DNA of 64,000 bases. It comes from a virus. Its lineage: Duplodnaviria > Caudoviricetes. How positions within the stretch are numbered: position 1 is the stretch's first letter; the number at the start of each line of letters is the position of its first letter. The notes beneath the pieces were generated by a model. The model worked only from the letters and a program-made list of their open reading frames with translations. It was not told where the DNA came from and did not search any database. Positions 5,846 to 58,564 of the stretch are shown piece after piece. Location of the stretch: IMG/VR virus record IMGVR_UViG_3300047469_000103, positions 32,001-96,000 of that record; one strand, given 5' to 3'. Made by a program: the position numbers and the translations under genes.

Positions 5846-6121
5846 TACACCCGGACGCCAAGCATCCAGATTAATGTGTCGCTCGTATCCGCGATAACCA
5901 TCACGCGCATGCACGTAGACATGGGCCACCAACAACGTCAGCGGGAAATTGTGTTCGCCCGTAATAAACGTGTGGCGCTTCCAGTCAACGAAACGGTCAA
6001 TTTCAAACATGCGATCAAATACAAATTGTTCGCCGCGAAATGTAACCGTCTCGTTTGCCAACATGCGCAGGAAATCATCACGAAAAGAACCGTCAGGATT
6101 TACCACAGTCAGCAGGCGCAT
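5843..6121 (-). CDS. hypothetical protein
   Basis: Start MRLLTVV overlaps the DHFR stop (TAATG). Confidence 0.65.
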   Translation of the reverse strand: MRLLTVVNPDGSFRDDFLRMLANETVTFRGEQFVFDRMFEIDRFVDWKRHTFITGEHNFPLTLLVAHVYVHARDGYRGYERHINLDAWRPGV

Positions 6122-6684
6122 TAGAAATTCACCGCACAACCGAAATCAATTGCAGGGCCATTCGGCGGCGTCTGTAAACTGGTGTCGATGTAGAACTGAC
6201 GCACGCGATAGGTCATGCTTTCTTCGACAACTTCCGAATGGAAAGAATAACGTTCCAAAAATGCGTGAACATCGTCGGACATAAACGTGTCGCACGGGCC
6301 GGTATAGGTGTTCGTTTTCAGCGTGGTGACGCGGGCGATATCCAGATACGGCAGAACGCTTTCGATCAGTGCTGCGCCACCGATTACCGACATGAATTGG
6401 TAGCCTTTGCTTTCTGCCAAATCAATTGCCATGTCGAAATCACTCACGAAATAAACGTCTTCAAATTTCCAATCTTGAGGACGTGTAGTCATGACGATAT
6501 TCAGACGACCGGGCAACGGTTTACAATCCAGCGATTCAAAAGTGCGTGCGCCCATAACAACCGCAGTGCCGCGTGTGGATCGCTTAAACCCTGCAAGCTC
6601 GCCGGGAACGTGCCACGCCATCTTGCCATTCAGACCAATACCACGGTCAACGTTTTCCGCCCAAATTGCTCCGATTCTTACCAT
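6121..6684 (-). CDS. folA: dihydrofolate reductase
   Basis: AENVDRGIGLNGKMAWHVPGELAGFK, VMGARTFES, KPLPGRLNIV and VIGGAALI motifs. Confidence 0.95.
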   Translation of the reverse strand: MVRIGAIWAENVDRGIGLNGKMAWHVPGELAGFKRSTRGTAVVMGARTFESLDCKPLPGRLNIVMTTRPQDWKFEDVYFVSDFDMAIDLAESKGYQFMSVIGGAALIESVLPYLDIARVTTLKTNTYTGPCDTFMSDDVHAFLERYSFHSEVVEESMTYRVRQFYIDTSLQTPPNGPAIDFGCAVNF

Positions 6685-6974: not shown

Positions 6975-7233
6975 TTGCTTCCCAAAATCCTGATTGTTTT
7001 TTGAAGGTGTCGGGCACGTCGGCTTCGACTTCGAAATGCAGCGGGCCTTTCTCTTTCATCATGGTGATATAAGAATCGAAAGAACCGATTTTCTTGTTAT
7101 CGCCCGGACGGCAAACCTGTACGATTTGTTCTTCGTCGCATTCCGGCAATTTCAGGCCGAGGTCGTGAAACCATGCGATATGGCCGATGGAAAGTGCGGT
7201 GCCGGTTGCGTCATTGACTGCGTAAACTTTCAT
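6961..7233 (-). CDS. hypothetical protein
   Basis: Start MKVYAV coupled to the upstream stop (TAATG). Confidence 0.7.
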   Translation of the reverse strand: MKVYAVNDATGTALSIGHIAWFHDLGLKLPECDEEQIVQVCRPGDNKKIGSFDSYITMMKEKGPLHFEVEADVPDTFKKQSGFWEANGIR

Positions 7234-7553
7234 TATTCCAATTCCTTCAATGCGTCGAGTGCTACCCGATTCAGGTAAGAACAAAGCATGATGTTGTGAG
7301 TGCGTCCGCGTGACCGGGTATTTTCTGTAATCACCGGTACGCCATTAAACCAGCCGAGAAAATGCAGGATCGTGCGATCATCTGGCGTAAACATTGCGTG
7401 CTTTACAATTTGTGGCAATAGCACGTGGTCAGCCGGAACCAGCATGACTGAATAAGTTCCCCGGCCACACTCTTCGATTACGTGCTGCGAGGGGAATTTA
7501 AACACGTGCATATAAGCCAGCGTGTTGTCGTAGATTTTATCGAGCAGCGTCAT
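7233..7553 (-). CDS. small protein with capsid A-domain-like motif
   Basis: VMLVP...FLGWFNGVPVITEN; weak paralogue of the 7808 and 8526 ORFs. Confidence 0.6.
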   Translation of the reverse strand: MTLLDKIYDNTLAYMHVFKFPSQHVIEECGRGTYSVMLVPADHVLLPQIVKHAMFTPDDRTILHFLGWFNGVPVITENTRSRGRTHNIMLCSYLNRVALDALKELE

Positions 7554-7807
7554 TCTTGTGCATCCACGTCGATTACTTTGCCACCCTCATAAGTCATAAG
7601 CAGGCGCGGTTGTTTGGTACGGAAAAGCGTTCCATTAATCGTGAACTCTTTTTGTCGCAACAGGCTTTCTTTCTGCGCCAGCATGAACATGCCTTTCGGC
7701 CAGATATTCAGGTAGAGGATTTCTGCCTCGTAGGATTCGGGCAAATCAACTTCCTTCGGGTTGAAGATATAGTTCGTTAAAAACTTACTTGGTTTGCCCG
7801 TTCCCAT
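7550..7807 (-). CDS. hypothetical protein
   Basis: Tightly packed ORF in the operon. Confidence 0.7.
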   Translation of the reverse strand: MGTGKPSKFLTNYIFNPKEVDLPESYEAEILYLNIWPKGMFMLAQKESLLRQKEFTINGTLFRTKQPRLLMTYEGGKVIDVDAQE

Positions 7808-8533
7808 TTATGCGCTCACTTTTTCCAGTTCAAGATAGATCAGGCTGTTTTTGTCGCGCAGACCTTCCACCAAAAACGCATCGGTATAAACCGGCACGCC
7901 TCGGTAAAGTCCGTGGTGGCCGTCCAACTGCGAAGCCGGATCGTGATTAACCACGTATTCGTTTTCACGCGTGGTCACAATCCACAGATAGAACGCCGCC
8001 CAATAACGCGCAGGCATCGACAGGGATTTAACCTGAGTTTCACGCGTGTTGTGTTTGTACCATGCGCCCAAGAAATCCAACTCATTGAATTCTGGAATGT
8101 CGATTTCCGCGCCGATACCTTCGCTGCGATTCACGCGGAAATAAGGACAGCGGCTGTGTTCCAGTTCGCGCATGTACTCGCCATCCATTTGTGCAAAATG
8201 AATAAGCGTATTTTCTGGATAGCTTTTATCCGGGTGTGCGTAAACGTCGGAGAAAACCATTGCACTGCCGACCTTGCCGACCACGCCGCCTTTCATGTTG
8301 CCTTCAGTCATTGGCAACGCTGTGAAAAACCCGATTTTTGAACTCGCATGGGCCAGACCGTTTTCCATCAACCAAATCCAGTATTTACGAGGGACAACCA
8401 CGTATGCACTTACAGCCGCATCAAGCAGGAATTCTTCAATTGCTGTTTTCGGGTGCATCAACGGGTTAGAAACCCGGCCATCACGAGGCACGTCCCAATA
8501 GTTAAAACGTTCCTGCAAAGATTTCTCAGACAT
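7808..8533 (-). CDS. protein with two tandem capsid A-domain-like repeats
   Basis: YVVVPRKYW...GGVVGKVGSAMVFSD and LSMPARYW...GHHGLYRGVPVYTDAFL. Confidence 0.7.
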   Translation of the reverse strand: MSEKSLQERFNYWDVPRDGRVSNPLMHPKTAIEEFLLDAAVSAYVVVPRKYWIWLMENGLAHASSKIGFFTALPMTEGNMKGGVVGKVGSAMVFSDVYAHPDKSYPENTLIHFAQMDGEYMRELEHSRCPYFRVNRSEGIGAEIDIPEFNELDFLGAWYKHNTRETQVKSLSMPARYWAAFYLWIVTTRENEYVVNHDPASQLDGHHGLYRGVPVYTDAFLVEGLRDKNSLIYLELEKVSA

Positions 8534-8981
8534 GTTCAACCTCACGCGAACCTACGAAAATAATCGAATTCTTGAATGCAACATCGTCCGTGCGCAACGC
8601 CCGATACAGGAAAGCGTCCGTGTAGATTTGACAGCCGCAAATGTCGCCCAAATCCCCGTGTAATACTTTCTGGTAATTGGTAATCGGGTTGAGGTGTTCC
8701 ATCAATGCAGGATTGCCGATAATGTCGGCCCATGCACTATCGCGCAGCAGCATATATTTTGTGTTTTTACACAGATGCAAAAACTGCTCTACGTCGTCGT
8801 GAATGATGTTTTCACCGACCGGGATACCAATCAACAAAGCGTCGTCTTTACGCTTCATGAATTCGTTTGCAGCAATTTGCTCTGCGTCGGTGTCGATGGG
8901 AACGGAACGGCGCAGTTCTTCCGCCTGTCGATTCAAACGCATGTTGCGACCGGCGATTGTTTCTTCTGTTGTTTGATCCAT
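8526..8981 (-). CDS. protein with one capsid A-domain-like repeat
   Basis: YMLLRDSAWADIIG...HGDLGDICGCQIYTDAFL; shares YTDAFL and KNS(L/I)I with the 7808 ORF. Confidence 0.7.
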   Translation of the reverse strand: MDQTTEETIAGRNMRLNRQAEELRRSVPIDTDAEQIAANEFMKRKDDALLIGIPVGENIIHDDVEQFLHLCKNTKYMLLRDSAWADIIGNPALMEHLNPITNYQKVLHGDLGDICGCQIYTDAFLYRALRTDDVAFKNSIIFVGSREVEHV

Positions 8982-9512
8982 TTATTCCACCAAAGGGGTA
9001 AGAGGTTCCAGTGTATTCAGAAGCTTCGAAACTGGTTCGCTTATTTCATTCGGCGCAACTGGAATGTCTTCGTCTGCGCCCATTTCCCGCACAAACAATT
9101 CCATCGAAAACCAAACCGTCATGTAATAATCTTTGTCGTCTTTCCATTCGTCACCATCGCGAATGTGACGGTGCGCATCGTCGTGAACTTCTTTCCACTC
9201 GTACAGATAGCGCCCGGTTGCACCACCTGCAAACAATTTGTCGAGCATTGCGCTCATTGTTTTCTGCATGTGGTAGGCTTTCGGAATGTTCGCAGTCAGC
9301 AACTTTTTATCGAAGTTAATGAACGCAGAAAACTCCGGCATTACGTTGTCGTAAAACTGCACAATCCAACCGTCTTGTTCAAGCATTTCCTGCCATGCCC
9401 AAATGTCGTTGGTGAATTCGCCCGCATCGCCTTTAGCCTGCCAACGCTTTTTGAATTCTTCCTGCCACACACGATTTGCAGCTTCGGTAAAATCTACGAT
9501 ATTCGATTTCAT
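8982..9512 (-). CDS. hypothetical protein
   Basis: ORF abutting its neighbours. Confidence 0.75.
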   Translation of the reverse strand: MKSNIVDFTEAANRVWQEEFKKRWQAKGDAGEFTNDIWAWQEMLEQDGWIVQFYDNVMPEFSAFINFDKKLLTANIPKAYHMQKTMSAMLDKLFAGGATGRYLYEWKEVHDDAHRHIRDGDEWKDDKDYYMTVWFSMELFVREMGADEDIPVAPNEISEPVSKLLNTLEPLTPLVE

Positions 9513-9518
9513 AACGCC

Positions 9519-9899
9519 TCAGTGTTTGGTCATTGGAACAGTTGTGAAAACTTTCATCACCAGCGGTTGCGGAAAACCCGTGGCTGACTTCGGCGTCATG
9601 ACTTGACCGTCAACAAACGCCCCGCAGATATCCCCCATCGGAGTATTGCCAATGAAAAAACAATCTGTTCGGGCGTCTTCCATCTGGCCATAATCCCACA
9701 AATCAATCTGGAACCGCCGACCGTATCGCGCTGAAATTTCCTCTGCCTTTTCGTAAATGTTTGCCTGTGTGCATTGCAGCAATTCCAAGCGCACCGCATT
9801 CATTGTGTTCACATCACGAAAACGATTACCGATAACCAGCGTCAGGCCCAATGCCAAATCTGCAACGGAAAGCTGTGTAGGAAATTCCATTTTATTCAC
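9519..9899 (-). CDS. hypothetical protein
   Basis: GTGA/ATGA-type overlap with thyA. Confidence 0.7.
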   Translation of the reverse strand: MNKMEFPTQLSVADLALGLTLVIGNRFRDVNTMNAVRLELLQCTQANIYEKAEEISARYGRRFQIDLWDYGQMEDARTDCFFIGNTPMGDICGAFVDGQVMTPKSATGFPQPLVMKVFTTVPMTKH

Positions 9900-11119
9900 T
9901 TCGCGATAGGTACGTTTTTCTGAGCGTCATGGCTTTCGTAACCGACAAGGGAGAAATCCCCAACGGTGAAATCCAGAATCGACGACTGTTCAAGCGATTT
10001 GATTTGCAGCTTCGGTGCTTTGTGGATCACTGGACGGTTCATGATTTCAGCAACGAAACCCTGTTCCAAATGGTTCATGTAAATGTGCGCATCGCCAACT
10101 GTGTGATGCAGGAAACGAGCGCGCAGGCCGTGAGCTTTTGCGTACATTTCGGTAATCAGTGCGTACTGTGCGACGTTGAACGGAACGCCCAACAGGAAAT
10201 CCGCGCTGCGTTGATAGAGTTTGCAATCGAGGAATTGCAGACCGTTTTCGTCACGCTTTTGCGACACGTACCATTGCGCCATTGTGTGGCAAGGTGGCAG
10301 ACTCATTTCGTCAAGCTGCGCAACGTTCCAGCCGGTCAGAATAATGCGGCGAGAATCCGAACGGTTTTTGATGGCTTTTTCAACGTCCATCACTTGGTCA
10401 ATTTCACGCTTAATTACAACGTGTGTTTTTCGCGGGCTGTCCTGTATACGATCATCGTATTCAAAGTAATCAACAACGTCGAAGCCTCGGTCTGCATACG
10501 CTTTCCAGTTCGCTATCCAATCTTTGATATCGACGATGCGAACGTCTTCCCATGCCCGCCATTGTTTGCCATAAATCGGCCCCAGCGCACCGTCAATCAA
10601 TTCCTCTTCTTTAATGCCCCAGTTATTCAGCTTGGCGTTAAAGGCGTCTTCATATTCGGTCGAAGACAAACCTTTGATTGCGCGCAGTTCTTCACGGAAC
10701 GCGTCGAAAGATTCCTTTTGTTTTTCCGTCAGCAAACCGAGGCGTTCCTCCACGCACAGTTCGCGATAGATTTCGGTGCCGGGAATTACGTTCTGATCCC
10801 AAATGCGCACACCTTTTTCTTTCAACGTTTTCAAATCGCATTTGCCTTGCAGCATCCAATCAATCGTTTCGACTTTCATGGTTTGGAATGCGAGACGTTT
10901 CAACGATGTGGCCGGATACGCACGGCGCAAATCAATCTTGTGGCCGATATCACCGAACGCCGACATGGTACGAACGCCAGTACGGTCGGTGCGTTCCTCG
11001 CCTTCACTCAGGATGTAACGAATGTTATCTTTGTACTGAAAATCGAATTCGTTTTCCGCGTATGCAACCTCTTCAACCTCATTCGGTGATTCACCTTCAG
11101 TACGGAAATAATCGTTCAT
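9896..11119 (-). CDS. thyA: thymidylate synthase with two insertions
   Basis: DRTGVRT, LGPIYGKQWR, SRRIILTGWN, LPPCH, YQRSADFLLGVPFN and GDAHIY motifs. Confidence 0.97.
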   Translation of the reverse strand: MNDYFRTEGESPNEVEEVAYAENEFDFQYKDNIRYILSEGEERTDRTGVRTMSAFGDIGHKIDLRRAYPATSLKRLAFQTMKVETIDWMLQGKCDLKTLKEKGVRIWDQNVIPGTEIYRELCVEERLGLLTEKQKESFDAFREELRAIKGLSSTEYEDAFNAKLNNWGIKEEELIDGALGPIYGKQWRAWEDVRIVDIKDWIANWKAYADRGFDVVDYFEYDDRIQDSPRKTHVVIKREIDQVMDVEKAIKNRSDSRRIILTGWNVAQLDEMSLPPCHTMAQWYVSQKRDENGLQFLDCKLYQRSADFLLGVPFNVAQYALITEMYAKAHGLRARFLHHTVGDAHIYMNHLEQGFVAEIMNRPVIHKAPKLQIKSLEQSSILDFTVGDFSLVGYESHDAQKNVPIAK

Positions 11120-11155: not shown

Positions 11156-11189
11156 TACACACCTTATTTACAGTATTGGAGAGCGTATC

Positions 11190-11483
11190 ATGGGCCAACC
11201 AAACATCCGGCTTAGCGTAGACCAAACCACCGGCCACGGCTGCTGGCCTCCTACTTTGCCTGTTGTTGCTTCAATGAATGTTTTCTGTAACGGAAAAGCA
11301 GAAGTGCGCGTAGGCGATTCCTACATGACGCACTGTTGCCCATCGAAAGGTTGTCACAGCGGCAAAGCATTAACCGGTGCAGTAAAAACATTTACCAATA
11401 AACGATTGGTTCATACGGCTGGCGGTTCCATTGATTGTGGCGACTTTGCCAGCAACGGTTCGCCAAACGTTTTTTCGGGGTGA
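11190..11483 (+). CDS. PAAR-like spike tip protein (T4 gp5.4-like)
   Basis: TGHGCWPP, NVFCNGK...RVGD...HCC, IDCGDFASNGSPNVF. Confidence 0.88.
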   Translation: MGQPNIRLSVDQTTGHGCWPPTLPVVASMNVFCNGKAEVRVGDSYMTHCCPSKGCHSGKALTGAVKTFTNKRLVHTAGGSIDCGDFASNGSPNVFSG

Positions 11484-11486
11484 TTC

Positions 11487-11876
11487 ATGGCAGAAGTAAA
11501 AACATACACGTATTCCGATATCAGTTTGTACGCGGGCATTACCCAAAACGCTCTGGTATTTGACGAAGACAGCATTAACCAAAACATTCTGCTGATTCTC
11601 ATGACGCCTATTCGGTCGGCGTGGTTTAACCCGACTATTGGTTGCATGGTCATGGAATATCTGTTCGATCCTTTGGATGCTTTTACTGCACAGAAAATCC
11701 GTAGCGAGATTATGAATGTGTTGCCTCGTAACCTCGAAACGCGTGTGCAGATTACCGGCGTCGATGTGATTCCCGATTTCGATAACCAAAACTATTACAT
11801 CAGCATTCAATACAACGTTCCAAGTATGGATGCGAGTAAAATTGTCTTTAACTTCAACTTGGCGCGCGTACAATGA
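11487..11876 (+). CDS. baseplate wedge protein (gp25/GPW-like)
   Basis: SINQNILLILMTPIRSAWFNPTIGC...LFDP...ETRVQI pattern; position next to PAAR. Confidence 0.88.
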   Translation: MAEVKTYTYSDISLYAGITQNALVFDEDSINQNILLILMTPIRSAWFNPTIGCMVMEYLFDPLDAFTAQKIRSEIMNVLPRNLETRVQITGVDVIPDFDNQNYYISIQYNVPSMDASKIVFNFNLARVQ

Positions 11877-13333
11877 CAACTGATCGTGACACTTTCCCGA
11901 TTGCAATTACGGATATTGACGAAGCTGCTCAATATTTTGCAGAAAAACTCAGAGAGGAAGGCACGTGGGATGACATGTTGCCGACCAACGTTGGCGCTTT
12001 TATTCAACGTATTTATGCGGGTATGGCTGTCGGCCACCAGCACAGCATTTTGATGACTGCCCGAAATGCTTATTTGAATACCGCAAAACGTGACAGTGCA
12101 ATCTTTGCAATTACGCGTGACCTCGGGGTTTATGTCGAGCGCCGTAGTAGCGCAGGCACCACTGCACTAATGACAAACGCGTATCCAAATACCATGTTTG
12201 TTACACCGTATTCGCAGCACCGTGTCGGCAATGTGAAGTTCTACAACCCGACACAATACTACGTCATTTCCGGCATGACTCAATCGGTCGAATTGCTGCA
12301 AGGTGAAGTGCGTACAAAAGAATTCGATTTGGATGCAATTCTGAATCTGTCACTGTACGAATTCCTTTTGGAAGAACCGGGCTTTAACGTAACGCGTGAC
12401 CTGTTGGTTTATACCACCGACAAAAACACTGGCAACGTAACCAATTGGACAGCCGCTGAAAACGGAATGTTCGAATATGCCGCCGATGATCGCGTGTTCT
12501 TCCACAGCACCACTGCAAGCGGTGACGCATCGCTGACATTTGGTGATGGTGAATACGGCGCGCAATTGCCGAAGAAAAGCACGCTGACAATTCGTTATAT
12601 TTATTCTGAAGGCAGTAAGCACAACGCAATGCTGCCGGGTGTGAAAACTGTCTACAACGATTTCCCGATGGTTGCCGGTGAAACTACCGAAACAACTACG
12701 GGCGGCGCTGATCCAAAAGACGCGACCTACTATCGCCGTTATGCGCCGATTGCTTATCGGTCGAAAAAGAAGAAGATTTCCAAGGAAGATATTGAAGGCG
12801 CAATTCGTGGTTATCCGGGCGTAGCTGATTGCGTGGTTCTCGGTCAACGGGATATCGCACCAGAAGATAAAACGTGGATGAACACAATGCGCGTTTGTAT
12901 TTTGCCGCTGAATACCGATACATGGGGCGGTGCAAATCCAAACCCTAAATCGGCAAGCTGGCAGAACTTCCTGACGTGGTTGGAACCGCAATTACATGAC
13001 CGTCTGGAAACTCAGACATGGAACGCCACAAAAGTATTTGTGTCTGTTCACGTAAACATCGCGATTTTCGAGTGGGCAGCAGACCGCGCAACGATTATTC
13101 GGAATACGATCAACGAAAACATTCTGAAGCTTTTCCAGAAACGTGCAGGCATTCTTAAACGCCGCGTTTCCAAGTCGGACATTGAAAAAGCTTGCCGGAT
13201 TGATGGCGTCGATTATATCGAAGTTATTTCTCCATCAGAACGTTCTGTCGTGCTGGACGATCCTACTTCCTATTGCGTTCTGGCTGAAGCGCCGCTGATT
13301 GATATGGTTATTTCGGAGCGTGTCGATGAATAA
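11873..13333 (+). CDS. baseplate wedge protein (gp6/baseplate J-like)
   Basis: AYLNTAKRDSA, LTFGDGEYG, LTIRYIYSEG, GGADP motifs. Confidence 0.85.
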   Translation: MTTDRDTFPIAITDIDEAAQYFAEKLREEGTWDDMLPTNVGAFIQRIYAGMAVGHQHSILMTARNAYLNTAKRDSAIFAITRDLGVYVERRSSAGTTALMTNAYPNTMFVTPYSQHRVGNVKFYNPTQYYVISGMTQSVELLQGEVRTKEFDLDAILNLSLYEFLLEEPGFNVTRDLLVYTTDKNTGNVTNWTAAENGMFEYAADDRVFFHSTTASGDASLTFGDGEYGAQLPKKSTLTIRYIYSEGSKHNAMLPGVKTVYNDFPMVAGETTETTTGGADPKDATYYRRYAPIAYRSKKKKISKEDIEGAIRGYPGVADCVVLGQRDIAPEDKTWMNTMRVCILPLNTDTWGGANPNPKSASWQNFLTWLEPQLHDRLETQTWNATKVFVSVHVNIAIFEWAADRATIIRNTINENILKLFQKRAGILKRRVSKSDIEKACRIDGVDYIEVISPSERSVVLDDPTSYCVLAEAPLIDMVISERVDE

Positions 13334-31431: not shown

Positions 31432-34400
31432 ATGGCAACATACGTTAAGTTAAGCGGCACGGCGATGGCCTTGAATACCTATCCATCAGAAGGTTCGATT
31501 GCGAACCTCACGGATGGTAACAAGACAACGCTTTGGCACAGCTACGACGCGAACGAAAGTGCAAACAATACCTTCATGGGTATGACGTTTTCGACCGGAC
31601 AAATTCCTCGCAAAATTGAAATTGATTTTGCACGCTGGGGTTCCAAAATTGTAATCGGTTATGCGCCTGCAAAGCCGGGAGCATGGTCGGGTTTTACGGT
31701 TGTTCGTACCATTGACACAAACGCGCAGCCGCTCGATGATGCGGGTGTTGCGTGGGGTGGCGACCGTTTAGGTAAAAGAACAAACACAATTCTTTTAAAC
31801 AATTCCGTGGCCGCGAAGTGCTGGGGTATTTGCAGCACTGACAATTTGTATGGCCCGCTTTCTGACACCAACGCCGGTAATAACACGCGACTAACTGTTT
31901 ATGAAGTTGCGATGTATTCGGATAGTCAATTCACCGCGCCTTCGCAACCACTCGCATCGACTACGCCCCTTACCGGTACAGCTTTTTGCGATAAAAATAC
32001 TTGGTGGTCTTCAAACAACCCCGGCTATGCACCGTCAAAAATGATCGACGGCGTGCTGGATGGTTTGCGCTGGATTGGTGCTGCACTCGATGTAACCGCA
32101 TCGCTGCAAAACTTTGCGGGTATTAAATTCACCGGCCTTCAAGATATTGTTGATGTGCAGGTGCATATCGCATCGTGGGGTAAAAGTTTTAAAATTGGTA
32201 CATGGGCAAACGGCACTGATCCTGCTGGCGCCTCGTTTACAAAAGCGCAAATTATTCCGCTGAAATCCTACGACTCGACCGTGCATACGGACGACGACGG
32301 TCTGGCAATCGGCATTGAAAAATGGTTGCGTTTTTCTGTACCAACGAATCAAATTCCCGGCGTTCTTTTTTATTGCGATGATAACAGCGCTAACCCGCTG
32401 TCGAACAACGCAGGGGCAGCCAACTCAAACGAAAGTCTTAACGAAATAAAGATTTTCGGTAAAGTTGTAACTGTTTCGGATGGCATTAACCCGAAGCCGC
32501 CTACGTCAGTTCCGACTGTACCGTACACCGCTGCACCGCCCATAGGTTGGACAAAAACCGCGTTTTCTACAGCAGGCAATTTCACGTTTACTCCGGCTGC
32601 TGATACGACAATGCTTTTGGCCGTTGCAATGGGTGCTGGTTCGGGCGGTCGCGTATTTACAAACCTCGACGGTTCTCCGACATTAAATAACACTACGCTT
32701 TTTGGTGGCGATACAATTCTCACCGGGCCAAATGGTGTTCTGTTAAATGCCGGTGGTGGTAAAGGTCAAGTCGCGGGTTTGGCAAATGCAAAACCTTCGG
32801 ATATTTTCGAAAACTGGTGGCGCTACATTGACCACGGCTCGACTGTCGGCACATTAAGTTCTGCGGGAATTGCTACATCAGCAGCAGGCCGTGCCGCTCC
32901 ATTTGGCTCTACTGCTCCGCCGTCTTTCACGTTGGCGATTGCACAAACGAACAATCCGTTAACTGCGCTAACCACAAACTTTAACAACAACAACGCGGTT
33001 CCAATTACGCCGTCTGTTTCCACGAATTTTTCGCGAAATGCTTCTTACGGGTGGACAAGTACAAACACTGATCCAAACTCGAAAGCAATCCTGACGTTCA
33101 ACTTCAAAGGTTATATCGGTCAGCGTATTACTTTCAGTGCTTACAAATACAGTACGGAATCGACAACGTTTATTCTGTATTTGAATGGCGTGGCAGTCTA
33201 CAACGTCAACGGTGGCGGCAGCGGCCCTTACGATATGCCGGTAACATTAACGGCGGAAGGCGATCAAGTATTTACGTTTGAATTTACGCGCAGTGCAGGC
33301 TTGCCTTCGGTTCAAGGATTTGTCGGCATTTACCGAATTGCCTTGGACAACATCGGTTACGCTCCGACACTCGGCGGCGCAACTGGTCGCGCACAATCTG
33401 CGTTTCTTCCAGTTCTTCCAGTTTCTTTCACCGTTGGTAAAGGTGGTATTGGTCAACCCGGTGGGCAGAACGTAACGGCTGCGCAAAATGGTACAGGCGG
33501 TTCCGGTGCAGCAGCAGGCGGTAATGGTGGTGACGGTTTTGTTTACTTTTACGAATACAAAGGGAACGTGTTATTCGAAAAACCAAACGAACCTCTTACG
33601 TTCGCGAAAGTAAACGTTTCGACTGCGGAATTGCCGGGTTTGTATCGCTCAGATTATAAAGGGCGAGCGGTGCTTTCTCCGGGGTTCGATACCTTCATTC
33701 ACAATCTGCGACCACGCACGAAAAACGTACTTGTTTTAATGGTCGGCGCTGGTGGTGTGGTTGGTCTTGCTGCTGACCATCCATTTTCACAACAACCGCC
33801 AACAACCGTAAAACACGATATTAATACGTGGATAACCACAAGCGGTCAAAGTGGCGGGCAGTACGCAAACACCGGTAAAAGTTTAGGTGGTGTTTATACT
33901 TCACCTACCGATACTCTGTACGCCAAGAATGGTGATAGCAGCGGCTACAGTTACGACGATACTGCGCTATCTTCGTTTTTCGACGGCTCAGGTAATGGTG
34001 CGCGATCTTATGCGTACAATTACGGTGGTGGTGCTGGCGCGCTAATTCTGTTTTCGCTAAGCGTCGATCCGACCGATGATCGTTCGCTTGAACTGCAAAT
34101 TGCAAACGTATATGGTTCCAACACGCCACAACCCGGTGCTGTGACTATTTTCGAAACCGAAACGGATTTCGGCCCGTATATTTCGCAGCTTGTGGAATCG
34201 CTGCTGATTAAAAACAGCTACGGCGACACGTCCATTACGCAATCGGCACAACAGGTTCTGTTGAAAAACGGTTTGATTGGCAGCAACACTTCGCAAACTA
34301 CGGAAATGTTGTTGGTAAAAGAAAGCGATGTGAACGATCTGCAAGTTTCCTACATGAACGTCGCGTTCCTGTACGAAGCCACCGATCCGAATACCGCAGT

Positions 34401-36587: not shown

Positions 36588-37781
36588 ATGGGTATCGCAA
36601 TTCGTAAAGAGGGATTTATCACGGCAGGCACCGTGTCTCTCGCAATTATCACCGACATGTTGGCGAATGGTTTTAAAGCCATTTATCCAGTTGATGCTGG
36701 TGGCGTTTTTGTTCCGCCAACTGGCCCTGATGCAGAAAAATTCCACGTAACTTTGGAAGCAGGCCCGACTGTCGATCCACTTAACCCGCTGATTCCCGGC
36801 GCAACTCCAAACCAACCTTGGCGCGTGAATTTCACCGTCACCGATAATGCCACTTTGGGTATTTTCGTTGGCAGTTCTGCCGCGCTGAAAAATGACGGTT
36901 CTTTGCCGTACACTTCCGACAACGTAAAAACTACCAACAGCCAAGGCGAAACGATTAACACTCGTTTGGTCGGCGCTCGCGGTATTGTTGGTGCGGACTA
37001 CACCCCGCCACGCGGCGCACAGTCGTCGTCGGTTACTGTCGATAAAGAATTCTTTGTTGATGAAACCAAATTCGCGCCACACTGGAACAATCCAACCGAA
37101 GGTTTTGTTAACCGTCGTAATAAAGTTTGGCTGGATATTCAATCGACCACTCCGAAGGGCAGCAGCAACGTAGCGGCTGAAATCATTCCCGCCTACCCAA
37201 CTGATCCGAAAAAAGACGTATCGAATACCTACCCGCTTTCGTACTACCTCGCAATTACTCCACGCGGTTTCTTCCTGTCCGTTTGGCAGGGTAGCATTAC
37301 CAACATGGGCGGCACGGATTTCTCGTGGGTTCTGGTTCAACGTCCTGTGCAGCGTGATACCGGCGCCGTTGTTATTGACGGTAAAGCTCCGGTTTTCTGC
37401 GTGAACAGCGTAGGTAATCAAATCAACCGTTTCGTAGTTCGTGAAGCTGACGTTTCCGATGCCTCCGCAATTATCCTTGCAACTGAGGATAGCAAAGACG
37501 GCACCGCAATTATCAACGGTAAAAAACAAATCGGTGTTTCTGAAAATAACCAGTACATCGTAAACTATCCGTCGCGCCTGAATACTCCGCGTTACGCATA
37601 CACTTACGAACTGGACATGATCGGTTACGCTTCGGCCACCGTGATTTCTGGTACTACCGAAGTTCCACAAACTCTGTACGGCGAACCAACCGAACGGAAA
37701 TACCTCGGTATGCACTCCAACCTCCCGGCAAACAACGGCATGCGTATTGTTGCGCTGACCAAAGGCGGCGGCATCGCGTAA
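36588..37781 (+). CDS. virion structural protein, paralogue A (candidate hair/filament subunit)
   Basis: Clear paralogue of the 37795 ORF (PSRLNTPRYAYTYELDMIGY). Confidence 0.8.
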   Translation: MGIAIRKEGFITAGTVSLAIITDMLANGFKAIYPVDAGGVFVPPTGPDAEKFHVTLEAGPTVDPLNPLIPGATPNQPWRVNFTVTDNATLGIFVGSSAALKNDGSLPYTSDNVKTTNSQGETINTRLVGARGIVGADYTPPRGAQSSSVTVDKEFFVDETKFAPHWNNPTEGFVNRRNKVWLDIQSTTPKGSSNVAAEIIPAYPTDPKKDVSNTYPLSYYLAITPRGFFLSVWQGSITNMGGTDFSWVLVQRPVQRDTGAVVIDGKAPVFCVNSVGNQINRFVVREADVSDASAIILATEDSKDGTAIINGKKQIGVSENNQYIVNYPSRLNTPRYAYTYELDMIGYASATVISGTTEVPQTLYGEPTERKYLGMHSNLPANNGMRIVALTKGGGIA

Positions 37782-37794
37782 GGGGATTAAAAAA

Positions 37795-38835
37795 ATGGCA
37801 GTTTCTGGTTTTTATGTTCGTCGCAGCGGTTATACCCACGTTGGCGAATTGATGTTGGCTGTAATTGCCGACATGAGCGCGAACGGTTTTGCTGTTCGTT
37901 TTCCAGCCGCATGGGTTCCGCCAGTTGATCCGACTGGCCGTGCGAAATTCAAAGTAACTTTGGAAGCAAGCGAAACCGTTGATCCACTCAACGCCACCGC
38001 TTTGCAAAACAAACAACCTTGGCGCGTACAAATCGAAGTTTTCGACAAGCATACCGCTGGCGTAACTACTGGTTCGCAACAAGCTTTGCGCACTGATGGT
38101 TCCGCGTCGTATTCGATTAACGGCACCAAACTGAAAGGCCCGCAAGGCGCTGTCGGTGGCTACTACACCAAAGGCACTACGCTGGCTGATATCAGTCCTG
38201 ATCCAACCAAACCAGCGGAAGGTTTTATTAACCGAACTTCCCGTGTTGTTTTGGGCGCAATTGATTTGGCTGATTCTTTCCCAATGACTTATTCGCTTTC
38301 GATCACGCCTCGCGGTGTGGCCCTTTGCGTTTGGGAAGACTACGTTTCTGACAGCGGCGCTGCTGCAATTTCGTGGTTTGTTATTCAACGTCCGGTTGAT
38401 CGTACTACCGGCGCAGCAATCATTACCGGTAAAGCTCCGGTATTCTGCCTGAATGGCGTTAACAACGTTATTAACCGTTTTGTTGTGCGTGAGTCTGACG
38501 TACTCAAACCGTCTGACGCCGTTGACGCTACAAAAGACACGGATTACAACAACGCAATTATCAACGGAATTGAACAAGTAGCAATTTCCGAAGGTAATCG
38601 TTACGTTGTGGCTTTCCCTTCGCGTCTGAATACCACACGTTACGCCTATACCTACGAACTCGACATGCTGGGTTACACCAGTGCCGACGTGGTATCGGAA
38701 AACACGGATGTTCCGCTGACTGTTTACAACGAGGGAACTCCGCGTAAATACGTTTCGCTTCTGGCGAACGGTGCGAATAACACCGGCATGCGAATTGTGT
38801 CAATTAAGGAAGGCGGCGGTATTTCGCTGACCTAA
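37795..38835 (+). CDS. virion structural protein, paralogue B
   Basis: PSRLNTTRYAYTYELDMLGY; full-length similarity to the 36588 ORF. Confidence 0.8.
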   Translation: MAVSGFYVRRSGYTHVGELMLAVIADMSANGFAVRFPAAWVPPVDPTGRAKFKVTLEASETVDPLNATALQNKQPWRVQIEVFDKHTAGVTTGSQQALRTDGSASYSINGTKLKGPQGAVGGYYTKGTTLADISPDPTKPAEGFINRTSRVVLGAIDLADSFPMTYSLSITPRGVALCVWEDYVSDSGAAAISWFVIQRPVDRTTGAAIITGKAPVFCLNGVNNVINRFVVRESDVLKPSDAVDATKDTDYNNAIINGIEQVAISEGNRYVVAFPSRLNTTRYAYTYELDMLGYTSADVVSENTDVPLTVYNEGTPRKYVSLLANGANNTGMRIVSIKEGGGISLT

Positions 38836-57730: not shown

Positions 57731-57745
57731 CACTCACATACATAT

Positions 57746-58564
57746 TTACAGTTCTACGATCAGCACCTTATGCGTAACGTTTTCATTCATGAACGGGAAC
57801 AGTTGCGCCGCAAGGTCGGTGCCGTCTTCAACAGCCGTTGTTTTAAGCACAATTTCCGAATGTTGTACGCTGATTGCATTGCGCATGCGGCCAAAGAAAC
57901 GAGCGCCGTATTTTGCAGGAATAACCAACTGCATTTTGCTTTCGTCCATCACACCGTACACGCCGTTTTCGTCGTCGAGGTCACGCAAGAACCACGAGGC
58001 CAAAACGTCTTCGAATTGCTCTGGCGTTTTAACCATTCGCTCTTCGTAACGCATTGCTTCCATGTGCGGGAAAACCGATATCGCGCCCATTGCTGCAATG
58101 TGAAACTTTTTACGCGGTTCTTTTATCGGGCCGCAGTGCATGCAACTGAAACGGAAACCCGCAACCATGTTCGCGTCAACCTGTTCGGCATCCTTGATAT
58201 AGAAACGCAGGATGTGTTGGGTTTCGTCGATTTCGATTGTCGAGGTAAACGGTGCGTACTGGAAATACGCTTTGAACTTTTCCACTTCTTCGGCAGTGCG
58301 TGCGTGGAAGGATTGCATGTCCGCGTGCAGCCGATTTGCATGGATCATTACTTCTGCAAATTCCGGTTCTTCGTCTGCGCGATATTCGTCGATGTACGAA
58401 TCAATCCAGAAATAAGTTTCGCCAAACGTCAGCAGCAAACCATTCCACTCGTAAAACAATGCGTCGGGGCTTGGCCCTCTGCGCATCAGGCCGTCGTTTG
58501 GATCGCATGGAGTAGCGCCCATCAGTGCCAGAACTTCTAACGCTTTACTCAATGCTTCACTCAT
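57746..58564 (-). CDS. hypothetical protein
   Basis: Start MSEALSK overlaps the upstream stop. Confidence 0.75.
   Translation of the reverse strand: MSEALSKALEVLALMGATPCDPNDGLMRRGPSPDALFYEWNGLLLTFGETYFWIDSYIDEYRADEEPEFAEVMIHANRLHADMQSFHARTAEEVEKFKAYFQYAPFTSTIEIDETQHILRFYIKDAEQVDANMVAGFRFSCMHCGPIKEPRKKFHIAAMGAISVFPHMEAMRYEERMVKTPEQFEDVLASWFLRDLDDENGVYGVMDESKMQLVIPAKYGARFFGRMRNAISVQHSEIVLKTTAVEDGTDLAAQLFPFMNENVTHKVLIVEL

Follow-up and report, generated by a model that had tools for sequence, protein, structure and literature searches.

The window analysed here is a stretch of 64,000 nucleotides (nt) of a viral genome (Duplodnaviria; Caudoviricetes), positions 32,001 to 96,000 of the IMG/VR virus record IMGVR_UViG_3300047469_000103. 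On its minus strand lies a tightly packed string of genes which runs from thyA, encoding thymidylate synthase, to folA, encoding dihydrofolate reductase, with eight small genes in between (Table 1). This study concerns a domain, hereafter the unit, that is found once in the product of one of these small genes (P0002), twice in that of another (P0001) and, in a shortened and diverged form, probably once more in that of a third (P0003). An original prediction, made from the sequence of the window, had described an array of free-standing mini-proteins resembling the A-domain of the HK97-fold major capsid protein (MCP), placed between folA and thyA and antisense to the virion genes. The Pfam matches of both flanking genes and the minus-strand orientation of the genes between them agree with this placement, as do the plus-strand baseplate genes, which run divergently from the thyA-folA operon, and all four of the sequence strings quoted in the prediction are found in the translations.

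The comparisons with the capsid protein were made using the MCPs of phages Lu11, HRDY3 and Y3, in place of the MCP of the window phage itself. In tblastn searches, P0002 matched gp106 of Lu11 with 37% identity over 120 amino acids (E 4e-13) and, more weakly, annotated major capsid or head genes of Y3-like Erwinia and Dickeya phages, of phage NCTB and of others. P0002 also matches the family phrog_2522, 'major head protein' (E 7.7e-4), within profile positions 209-259 of 318. The true MCPs, Lu11 gp065, its HRDY3 counterpart and Y3 gp139, match this profile from end to end (E ~1e-120; positions 2-317), whereas in Lu11 gp106 there are two matches, both confined to positions ~197-268, so that gp106 represents a capsid-protein fragment repeated in tandem and not a capsid protein. 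RefSeq calls both gp106 (287 amino acids; L002:2908-3771) and gp065 (364 amino acids; L028:2957-4051) 'major head protein'. Judged by these profile matches, gp065 is the real MCP and the label of gp106 is misleading, having arisen from partial similarity. A phmmer search with P0002 identified 21 representative homologues, either single-domain (112-170 amino acids) or tandem (236-387 amino acids), from which an alignment of the unit family was built, comprising P0002 and proteins of the Lu11 gp106 and Y3 gp016 types. When this alignment was compared with that of the three MCPs by hhalign, the two matched with a probability of 99% and an E-value of 1.7e-17, residues 77-149 of P0002 corresponding to residues 245-314 of the Lu11 MCP, and P0002 and the Lu11 MCP also match directly in BLASTP (38% identity over 47 amino acids, E 2e-5). 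The Lu11 MCP in turn is related to the HK97-fold capsid protein of phage G, the structure of which has been solved (6WKK; E 5.5e-7, residues 73-358). Judged by where it falls in the alignment to 6WKK and by the domain boundaries of HK97, we take the matched segment (strand-helix...G-x-x-G...strand) to be the core of the A-domain. For the orthologous MCP of phage PaBG, HHpred matches of 99.9% to the capsid proteins of HK97, T5 and PA6 have been reported (PMC7412058).

Neither hhalign nor the hidden Markov model (HMM) of the unit gave any match of the unit proteins to the MCP outside residues 245-314, that is, in the region of the N-arm, E-loop and P-domain. As only these residues are matched, the unit proteins cannot build a shell. 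The helices that precede the unit core may correspond to the spine helix of the MCP. Pfam contains no family for the small operon proteins or for members of the unit alignment and gave no enzymatic or nucleic-acid-binding motif, and the best match of the unit profile in a PDB sequence search was non-significant (E 1.3). Taken together, we are highly confident that this family of ~110-amino acid units is derived from the A-domain of the HK97-fold MCP of this phage clade. On the sequence evidence, the unit proteins are a derived domain family and not MCPs in the functional sense, the full fold not being present. The A-domain likeness claimed by the original prediction is thus borne out by the hhalign and BLASTP matches and by the capsid-like models described below, and its statement that the rest of the HK97 fold is lacking agrees with the confinement of all matches to residues 245-314.

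The units are related to one another as well as to the capsid protein. The C-terminal parts of P0002 and P0001 match in BLASTP (E 3e-5), and in hhalign comparisons with the unit family the N-terminal half of the P0001 family scored 96.3% (E 1.7e-9) and the C-terminal half 97.9% (E 5.4e-13), while five other operon genes, used as negative controls, each scored 3.8% or less. With the unit HMM, each of six members of the P0001 family shows two domains; the E-values are 1e-45 for P0002, 6e-7 for the second unit of P0001 and 0.015 for the first, orthologues of which score down to 2e-7. Natural tandem proteins align motif by motif to both halves of P0001, and P0031, the P0001 orthologue of a 280-kb metagenomic contig, was found directly, as two matched stretches, by the phmmer search with P0002. 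The other orthologues of P0001 are Lu11 gp225 and HRDY3 XDJ15055. The two copies within P0001 are diverged. P0003 matches the C-terminal unit of P0001 over 62 collinear columns (hhalign 49%, E 1.7e-4) and the unit family at 10% (E 3e-3), and it found no usable match in the ESM Atlas. A Foldseek search with the P0002 model also reached a 110-amino acid protein of Lu11 (probability 0.92, E 0.045), which we infer from accession order and length to be gp224, the positional orthologue of P0003. We consider it probable, short of firm, that P0003 is a shortened and diverged fourth unit. Of the four related units in three genes that had been predicted, three are therefore firm, one in P0002 and two in P0001, and the fourth, at 7233, is weaker and probable only. 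The predicted unit size of ~70 amino acids did not hold, the units being ~100-120 amino acids long. Nor is the whole predicted interval a unit array, as it includes P0004, which has no similarity to the unit family or to the MCP (hhalign 0.1-0.2%) and has orthologues in HRDY3 and the 280-kb contig. A maximum-likelihood tree of the units over 78 columns lacked the resolution needed to date the duplications or to put them in sequence.

Table 1. Positions of the unit genes, their neighbours and other features discussed in the text (positions within the window; ~ marks approximate residue limits)
Feature	Position	Strand	Details
thyA	9896..11119	-	Thymidylate synthase, 407 amino acids; first operon gene; Pfam PF00303 (Thymidylat_synt) E 1.2e-76
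P0002	8526..8981	-	151 amino acids, one unit; lineage-specific N-terminal helix, then unit at residues ~30-150 (nt 8532-8894); core aligning to MCP, residues 77-149 (nt 8535-8753)
P0001	7808..8545	-	Two-unit protein; 245 amino acids from GTG 8545 or 241 from ATG 8533; unit 1 at residues ~36-117 (nt 8195-8440), unit 2 at ~128-242 (nt 7820-8164)
P0004	7550..7807	-	85 amino acids; conserved operon gene between unit genes; not a unit
P0003	7233..7553	-	106 amino acids; probable unit, shortened and highly diverged, at residues ~27-91 (nt 7281-7475); start overlaps upstream stop (ATGA)
folA	6121..6684	-	Dihydrofolate reductase, 187 amino acids; last operon gene; Pfam PF00186 (DHFR_1) E 1.6e-30
CTCCAATACTGTAAATA	11165..11181	-	Promoter-like 17-nt motif upstream of thyA; identical 17-mer upstream of Lu11 thyA
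ACTGTAAATA	57743..57752	-	Further exact copy of the 10-nt core of the promoter-like motif
Baseplate genes	11190..13333	+	PAAR-, gp25- and gp6-like
Tail sheath gene, first copy	36588..37781	+	phrog_12249, E 1e-119
Tail sheath gene, second copy	37795..38835	+	phrog_12249, E 1e-114

The predicted structures agree with this relationship. AlphaFold2 models of P0002 (predicted local distance difference test score, pLDDT, 90.5) and P0001 (pLDDT 88.8, predicted template modelling score 0.77) have the order helix-strand-helix-(strand)-helix-strand-strand-strand once and twice, respectively. In the BFVD database, Foldseek matched the P0002 model to Lu11 gp106 (E 1.4e-14), to the MCP of Achromobacter phage Motura (E 6e-4, probability 1.0) and to small uncharacterised proteins of Y3, PaBG and uncultured phages, and the neighbours of P0002 in the ESM Atlas were all capsid families by both methods. 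Among solved structures, Foldseek gave nothing at E <= 0.001 in the PDB for either model, the best match of both being the lambda capsid protein. VIA-align of P0001 against 48,161 chains returned HK97-fold shell proteins in all of the top nine places (Z 4.3-5.7), all of them on residues ~121-245, and for P0002 capsids tied with domain 3 of Pelota/eRF1 at Z ~4. The clusters of the AlphaFold database gave nothing significant and no cellular family. The evidence from the fold is weak by itself, yet it agrees with the strong evidence from sequence, and no other fold was resembled more strongly than that of HK97-type shell proteins. The models are thus not unrelated to the HK97 A-domain, an outcome that would have counted against the original prediction.

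The Pelota/eRF1 matches bear on the possibility that the fold has been exapted, the A-domain core now serving as a stable alpha/beta scaffold, for instance as an organiser of a thymidylate synthase/dihydrofolate reductase complex or as a nucleic-acid binder, with no contact to capsid or sensor. Folds of the Pelota/eRF1 domain 3 and L7Ae type have Z-scores of 3.5-4.3 with the two models, on a par with those of the capsids or lower; for P0002 they are about level with them. No sequence match in Pfam or the PDB accompanies these folds. The conserved linkage to thyA and folA, the identity of only ~30-38% between the units and the MCP core, and conserved features that the units have of their own, namely a Cys in G-C-x-x-Y-T-D and the N-terminal F-N-x-x-D-x-P-R-D-G of the two-unit family, would fit such a scaffold. 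However, other members of the family are unlinked to thyA and folA, and the Pfam search had given no motif of an enzyme or a nucleic-acid binder; we regard exaptation of this kind as unlikely. The motif F-N-x-x-D-x-P-R-D-G lies at residues 14-23 of P0001, before the first unit, and is invariant in all members of the two-unit family, without a counterpart in the MCP or in other unit proteins. It may be a separate binding motif.

Within the jumbo phages, protein searches and synteny assign the window to the PaBG-Lu11-Y3 group (PMC7412058) and, more closely, to its Lu11/HRDY3 branch. In Megablast, the operon matched none of the isolated phages, so that there is no near-identical isolate, and a scan of viral contigs found two IMG/VR contigs, 80-97% identical to the window, as the only close relatives. 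The order of baseplate genes followed by thyA to folA is found in these two contigs, in Lu11 (gp229 to gp221), in HRDY3 and in the 280-kb metagenomic contig, and thyA has the same position in Lu11, HRDY3 and L017. The residues of thyA that match its Pfam model (28-401) cover 266 model positions, which implies more than 100 residues of insertions; the orthologues of Lu11 and HRDY3 are similarly long. The Lu11 copy of the promoter-like motif CTCCAATACTGTAAATA overlaps an annotated feature, 'putative middle/late promoter', and its 10-nt core ACTGTAAATA has one further exact copy in the window. Elsewhere in the window, two tail sheath genes of the same family lie next to each other as tandem paralogues. 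Within the operon, P0002 starts directly after the stop of the preceding gene and encodes an acidic protein (isoelectric point 4.9). The true start of P0001 is more likely to be the ATG than the GTG: the ATG is preceded by GAGG 7 nt upstream, gives an 8-nt overlap with the stop of P0002 and corresponds to the 241-amino acid form on record. These overlaps of starts and stops indicate that the unit genes are packed for translational coupling.

The ratio of non-synonymous to synonymous substitution rates (dN/dS), estimated against the two close contigs, was 0.08-0.21 across P0001, P0002 and P0003 (0.08-0.16 for P0002 and 0.12-0.15 for P0003), values which indicate that the unit genes are real, conserved and under purifying selection. 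Chance similarity of motifs, or decaying remnants of a duplicated capsid gene, could be proposed in view of the borderline similarity of P0003 and of fold matches that, for solved structures, all lie below the usual significance. The profile E-values of 1e-9 to 1e-17 with their negative controls, the intact reading frames, the low dN/dS, the orthologues in several phages and the 21 representative homologues exclude such an artefact for P0001 and P0002, and make it extremely improbable overall. We also considered whether P0002 and P0001 together represent a split or frameshifted capsid paralogue. This was rejected, as the C-terminus of P0002 aligns to the C-terminus of P0001 and not to its start, and both genes are intact in relatives. 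Relative to the contig that is 97% identical to the window (L010), P0002 and P0001 have diverged (dS 0.13-0.18; window 7808-8981), whereas the flanking genes at 9519-9899, 8982-9512 and 7550-7807 are 100% identical in protein; on sequence grounds, this mosaic divergence over the two unit genes suggests a recombination patch rather than positive selection.

Members of the family occupy at least three kinds of genomic position. The first is the thyA-folA operon, where the two-unit gp225 type is present in all four operons seen. The second is directly after a gene of a connector family (phrog_17327), occupied by the gp106 type, in tandem form in Lu11 and P0015 and as a single unit in P0016 and P0019. 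The third is among replication and metabolic genes, as in Erwinia phage Y3 (gp016) and in the contigs of P0021 and P0025; the single-unit relative in Y3 lies near a macro-domain gene. On a 69-kb phage contig (L018:2795-3475, 8001-8357), a series of small genes includes a single-unit member, and a Tad2-like (PF11195) gene lies 4.5 kb upstream of this member. The operon slot of P0002, compared with L003:4109-5001 and L001:5546-5989, is variable: Lu11 has a P-loop gene, gp227, and an unrelated 151-amino acid protein, gp226, HRDY3 has a P-loop gene, and the 280-kb contig has a 243-amino acid gene with a gp226-like C-terminus. A gp106-type gene was not found at the sequence level in HRDY3 and PaBG, no unit protein of any type was detectable by sequence in PaBG, and a metagenome scan with the P0001 alignment gave no relatives.

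The units can be read in terms of capsid assembly. As assembly modulators or chaperones, they would take the place of a neighbouring subunit on the A-domain face of the MCP of their own phage, and would keep monomers soluble, time the formation of capsomers or help to set the very large triangulation number, and would then be displaced and not incorporated. The homology of the units to the oligomerisation domain of the MCP is in line with this function, as are the position of the gp106 type in Lu11-like phages, beside the phrog_17327 connector-family gene and a lysine-rich, coiled-coil-looking gene, and the retention of the two-unit gene in four of four thyA-folA operons; the match of CTCCAATACTGTAAATA to a middle/late promoter annotation in Lu11 would allow the units to be co-expressed with the head genes. 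However, the operon is one of nucleotide metabolism and not a head module, and a core assembly factor would be expected throughout the group, whereas in HRDY3 and PaBG the gp106 type went undetected, and the gene of the Y3 type is surrounded by replication genes. In addition, there is no known assembly factor that derives from an MCP, and we consider this function somewhat unlikely. The unit proteins might instead be minor components of the virion or prohead, incorporated through A-domain-like contacts at the centres of capsomers, at the portal vertex or in the prohead core. The connector-like neighbour of the gp106 type would suit such a role, and jumbo phages have many minor head proteins; among the virion proteins of PaBG are several small ones whose function is unknown (PMC7412058, Table 1). 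Against it, the operon encoding the window proteins is non-structural, and PaBG, whose virion proteome lists gp80 as the MCP (PMC7412058), is the sole member of the group with such a proteome and has no unit protein detectable by sequence; incorporation into the virion is, in our view, quite improbable.

We tentatively favour, over assembly modulation and at less than even confidence, a function as an immune decoy or shield against host immunity that senses capsid protein. Decoys and assembly modulators had both been put forward as possible functions in the original prediction. In an assembled capsid, the region that the unit proteins retain makes up the centre of the pentons and hexons, and it would be this same region that host sensors grip in the unassembled monomer; the units would thus mimic unassembled capsid protein through protein-protein binding. 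As decoys, they would soak up host sensors that recognise the A-domain. As shields, they would cover the A-domain face of newly made capsid monomers until these assemble. The immune sensors Avs7, Avs8 and Avs10 have been found to grip the penton- and hexon-forming face of the A-domain of the MCP (bioRxiv 10.64898/2026.01.04.697583), a finding that, as we read it, makes the decoy idea concrete without demonstrating a decoy. The patchy, copy-variable and accessory-like distribution of the family, its mostly non-structural neighbourhoods and the small, acidic nature of P0002 hint at such a function, as do the variability of the P0002 slot, the macro-domain neighbour in Y3 and the Tad2-like one in the 69-kb contig, and the divergence of P0002 and P0001 amid identical flanks. 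That the jumbo phages of the Lu11 group more generally deploy diversified, non-assembling copies of the A-domain, which titrate sensors (Avs7/8/10-like and others) or cap monomers, is a doubtful extension of this proposal.

Several observations weigh against a decoy or shield. The literature searched, including a 2026 review of counter-defence, contains no demonstrated capsid-fragment decoy in any phage, and the binding of a mimic might switch a STAND sensor on rather than block it. Positive selection on the unit genes was considered and rejected because of the low dN/dS and a dS that is raised as well. With its orthologues in Lu11, HRDY3 and the 280-kb contig, the two-unit protein shares ~29-34% identity, a level like that of its small neighbours and of folA and far below that of the baseplate genes. 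Such values mark the two-unit gene as part of the conserved core of the operon, evolving no faster than its neighbours, which suits housekeeping as well as an arms race. The closest relatives of P0002, those of the gp106 type, adjoin connector-like and scaffold-like genes, which points to morphogenesis. Lastly, the models match the solved structures of capsids weakly (Z <= 5.7, Foldseek E >= 0.12), and domain 3 of Pelota/eRF1 scores similarly for P0002.

Whichever function applies, decoy or shield on the one hand and assembly regulation on the other, the unit family is an HK97-fold derivative and represents an undescribed reuse of that fold; no published description of such an A-domain-only family was found in the literature searched. 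The capsid protein is among the most widely sensed components of phages, and a conserved, soluble family consisting of the A-domain only readily suggests itself as a candidate counter-measure or a new kind of assembly regulator. If the decoy or shield function is true, this would be the first virus to turn pieces of its own coat protein into immune decoys or shields. A cultured representative exists in Pseudomonas putida phage Lu11, with gp106, gp224 and gp225, and our analysis corrects a database label, as Lu11 gp106 is not a major head protein.

A duplicated capsid gene kept for a specialised role is known from T4, where the vertex protein gp24 is a paralogue of the MCP, gp23. T4 gp24, whose structure (1YUE) appeared as one of the weak fold matches, has retained the HK97 fold in full and serves as a shell subunit, whereas the unit proteins keep the core of the A-domain only. 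Encapsulins are HK97-fold derivatives used outside the virion and are among the best fold matches (Z 5.1-5.2), and, unlike the unit proteins, they keep the complete fold and assemble shells. Small, soluble, non-shell proteins with a proposed action of binding or imitating a major phage component include those that act on the assembly of capsid protein, namely satellite TcaP (PMC10002752), Sid and CpmA/B, and mimic-type anti-defence proteins of phages such as Ocr. None of these is known to derive from a capsid protein, unlike the unit proteins, for which binding is putative. The closest relative of P0002 in an isolated phage, Lu11 gp106 (YP_006382636), consists of two tandem units of the same domain and adjoins a connector-family gene and not thyA-folA, whereas P0002 has one unit and an extra N-terminal helix. 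Compared with the MCP of the PaBG/Lu11/Y3 group (phrog_2522; Lu11 gp065 and PaBG gp80, related to phage G gp27, 6WKK), the unit proteins are shorter (106-245 against ~365 amino acids), include one protein with a tandem duplication and are encoded outside the head module. They share with it the sequence of the A-domain core and its predicted topology: a strand with a conserved Trp, a helix, D-P-x-T, G-x-L-G-x-x-x-G, T-D-x-F and a final strand, together ~70 columns of the hhalign alignment.

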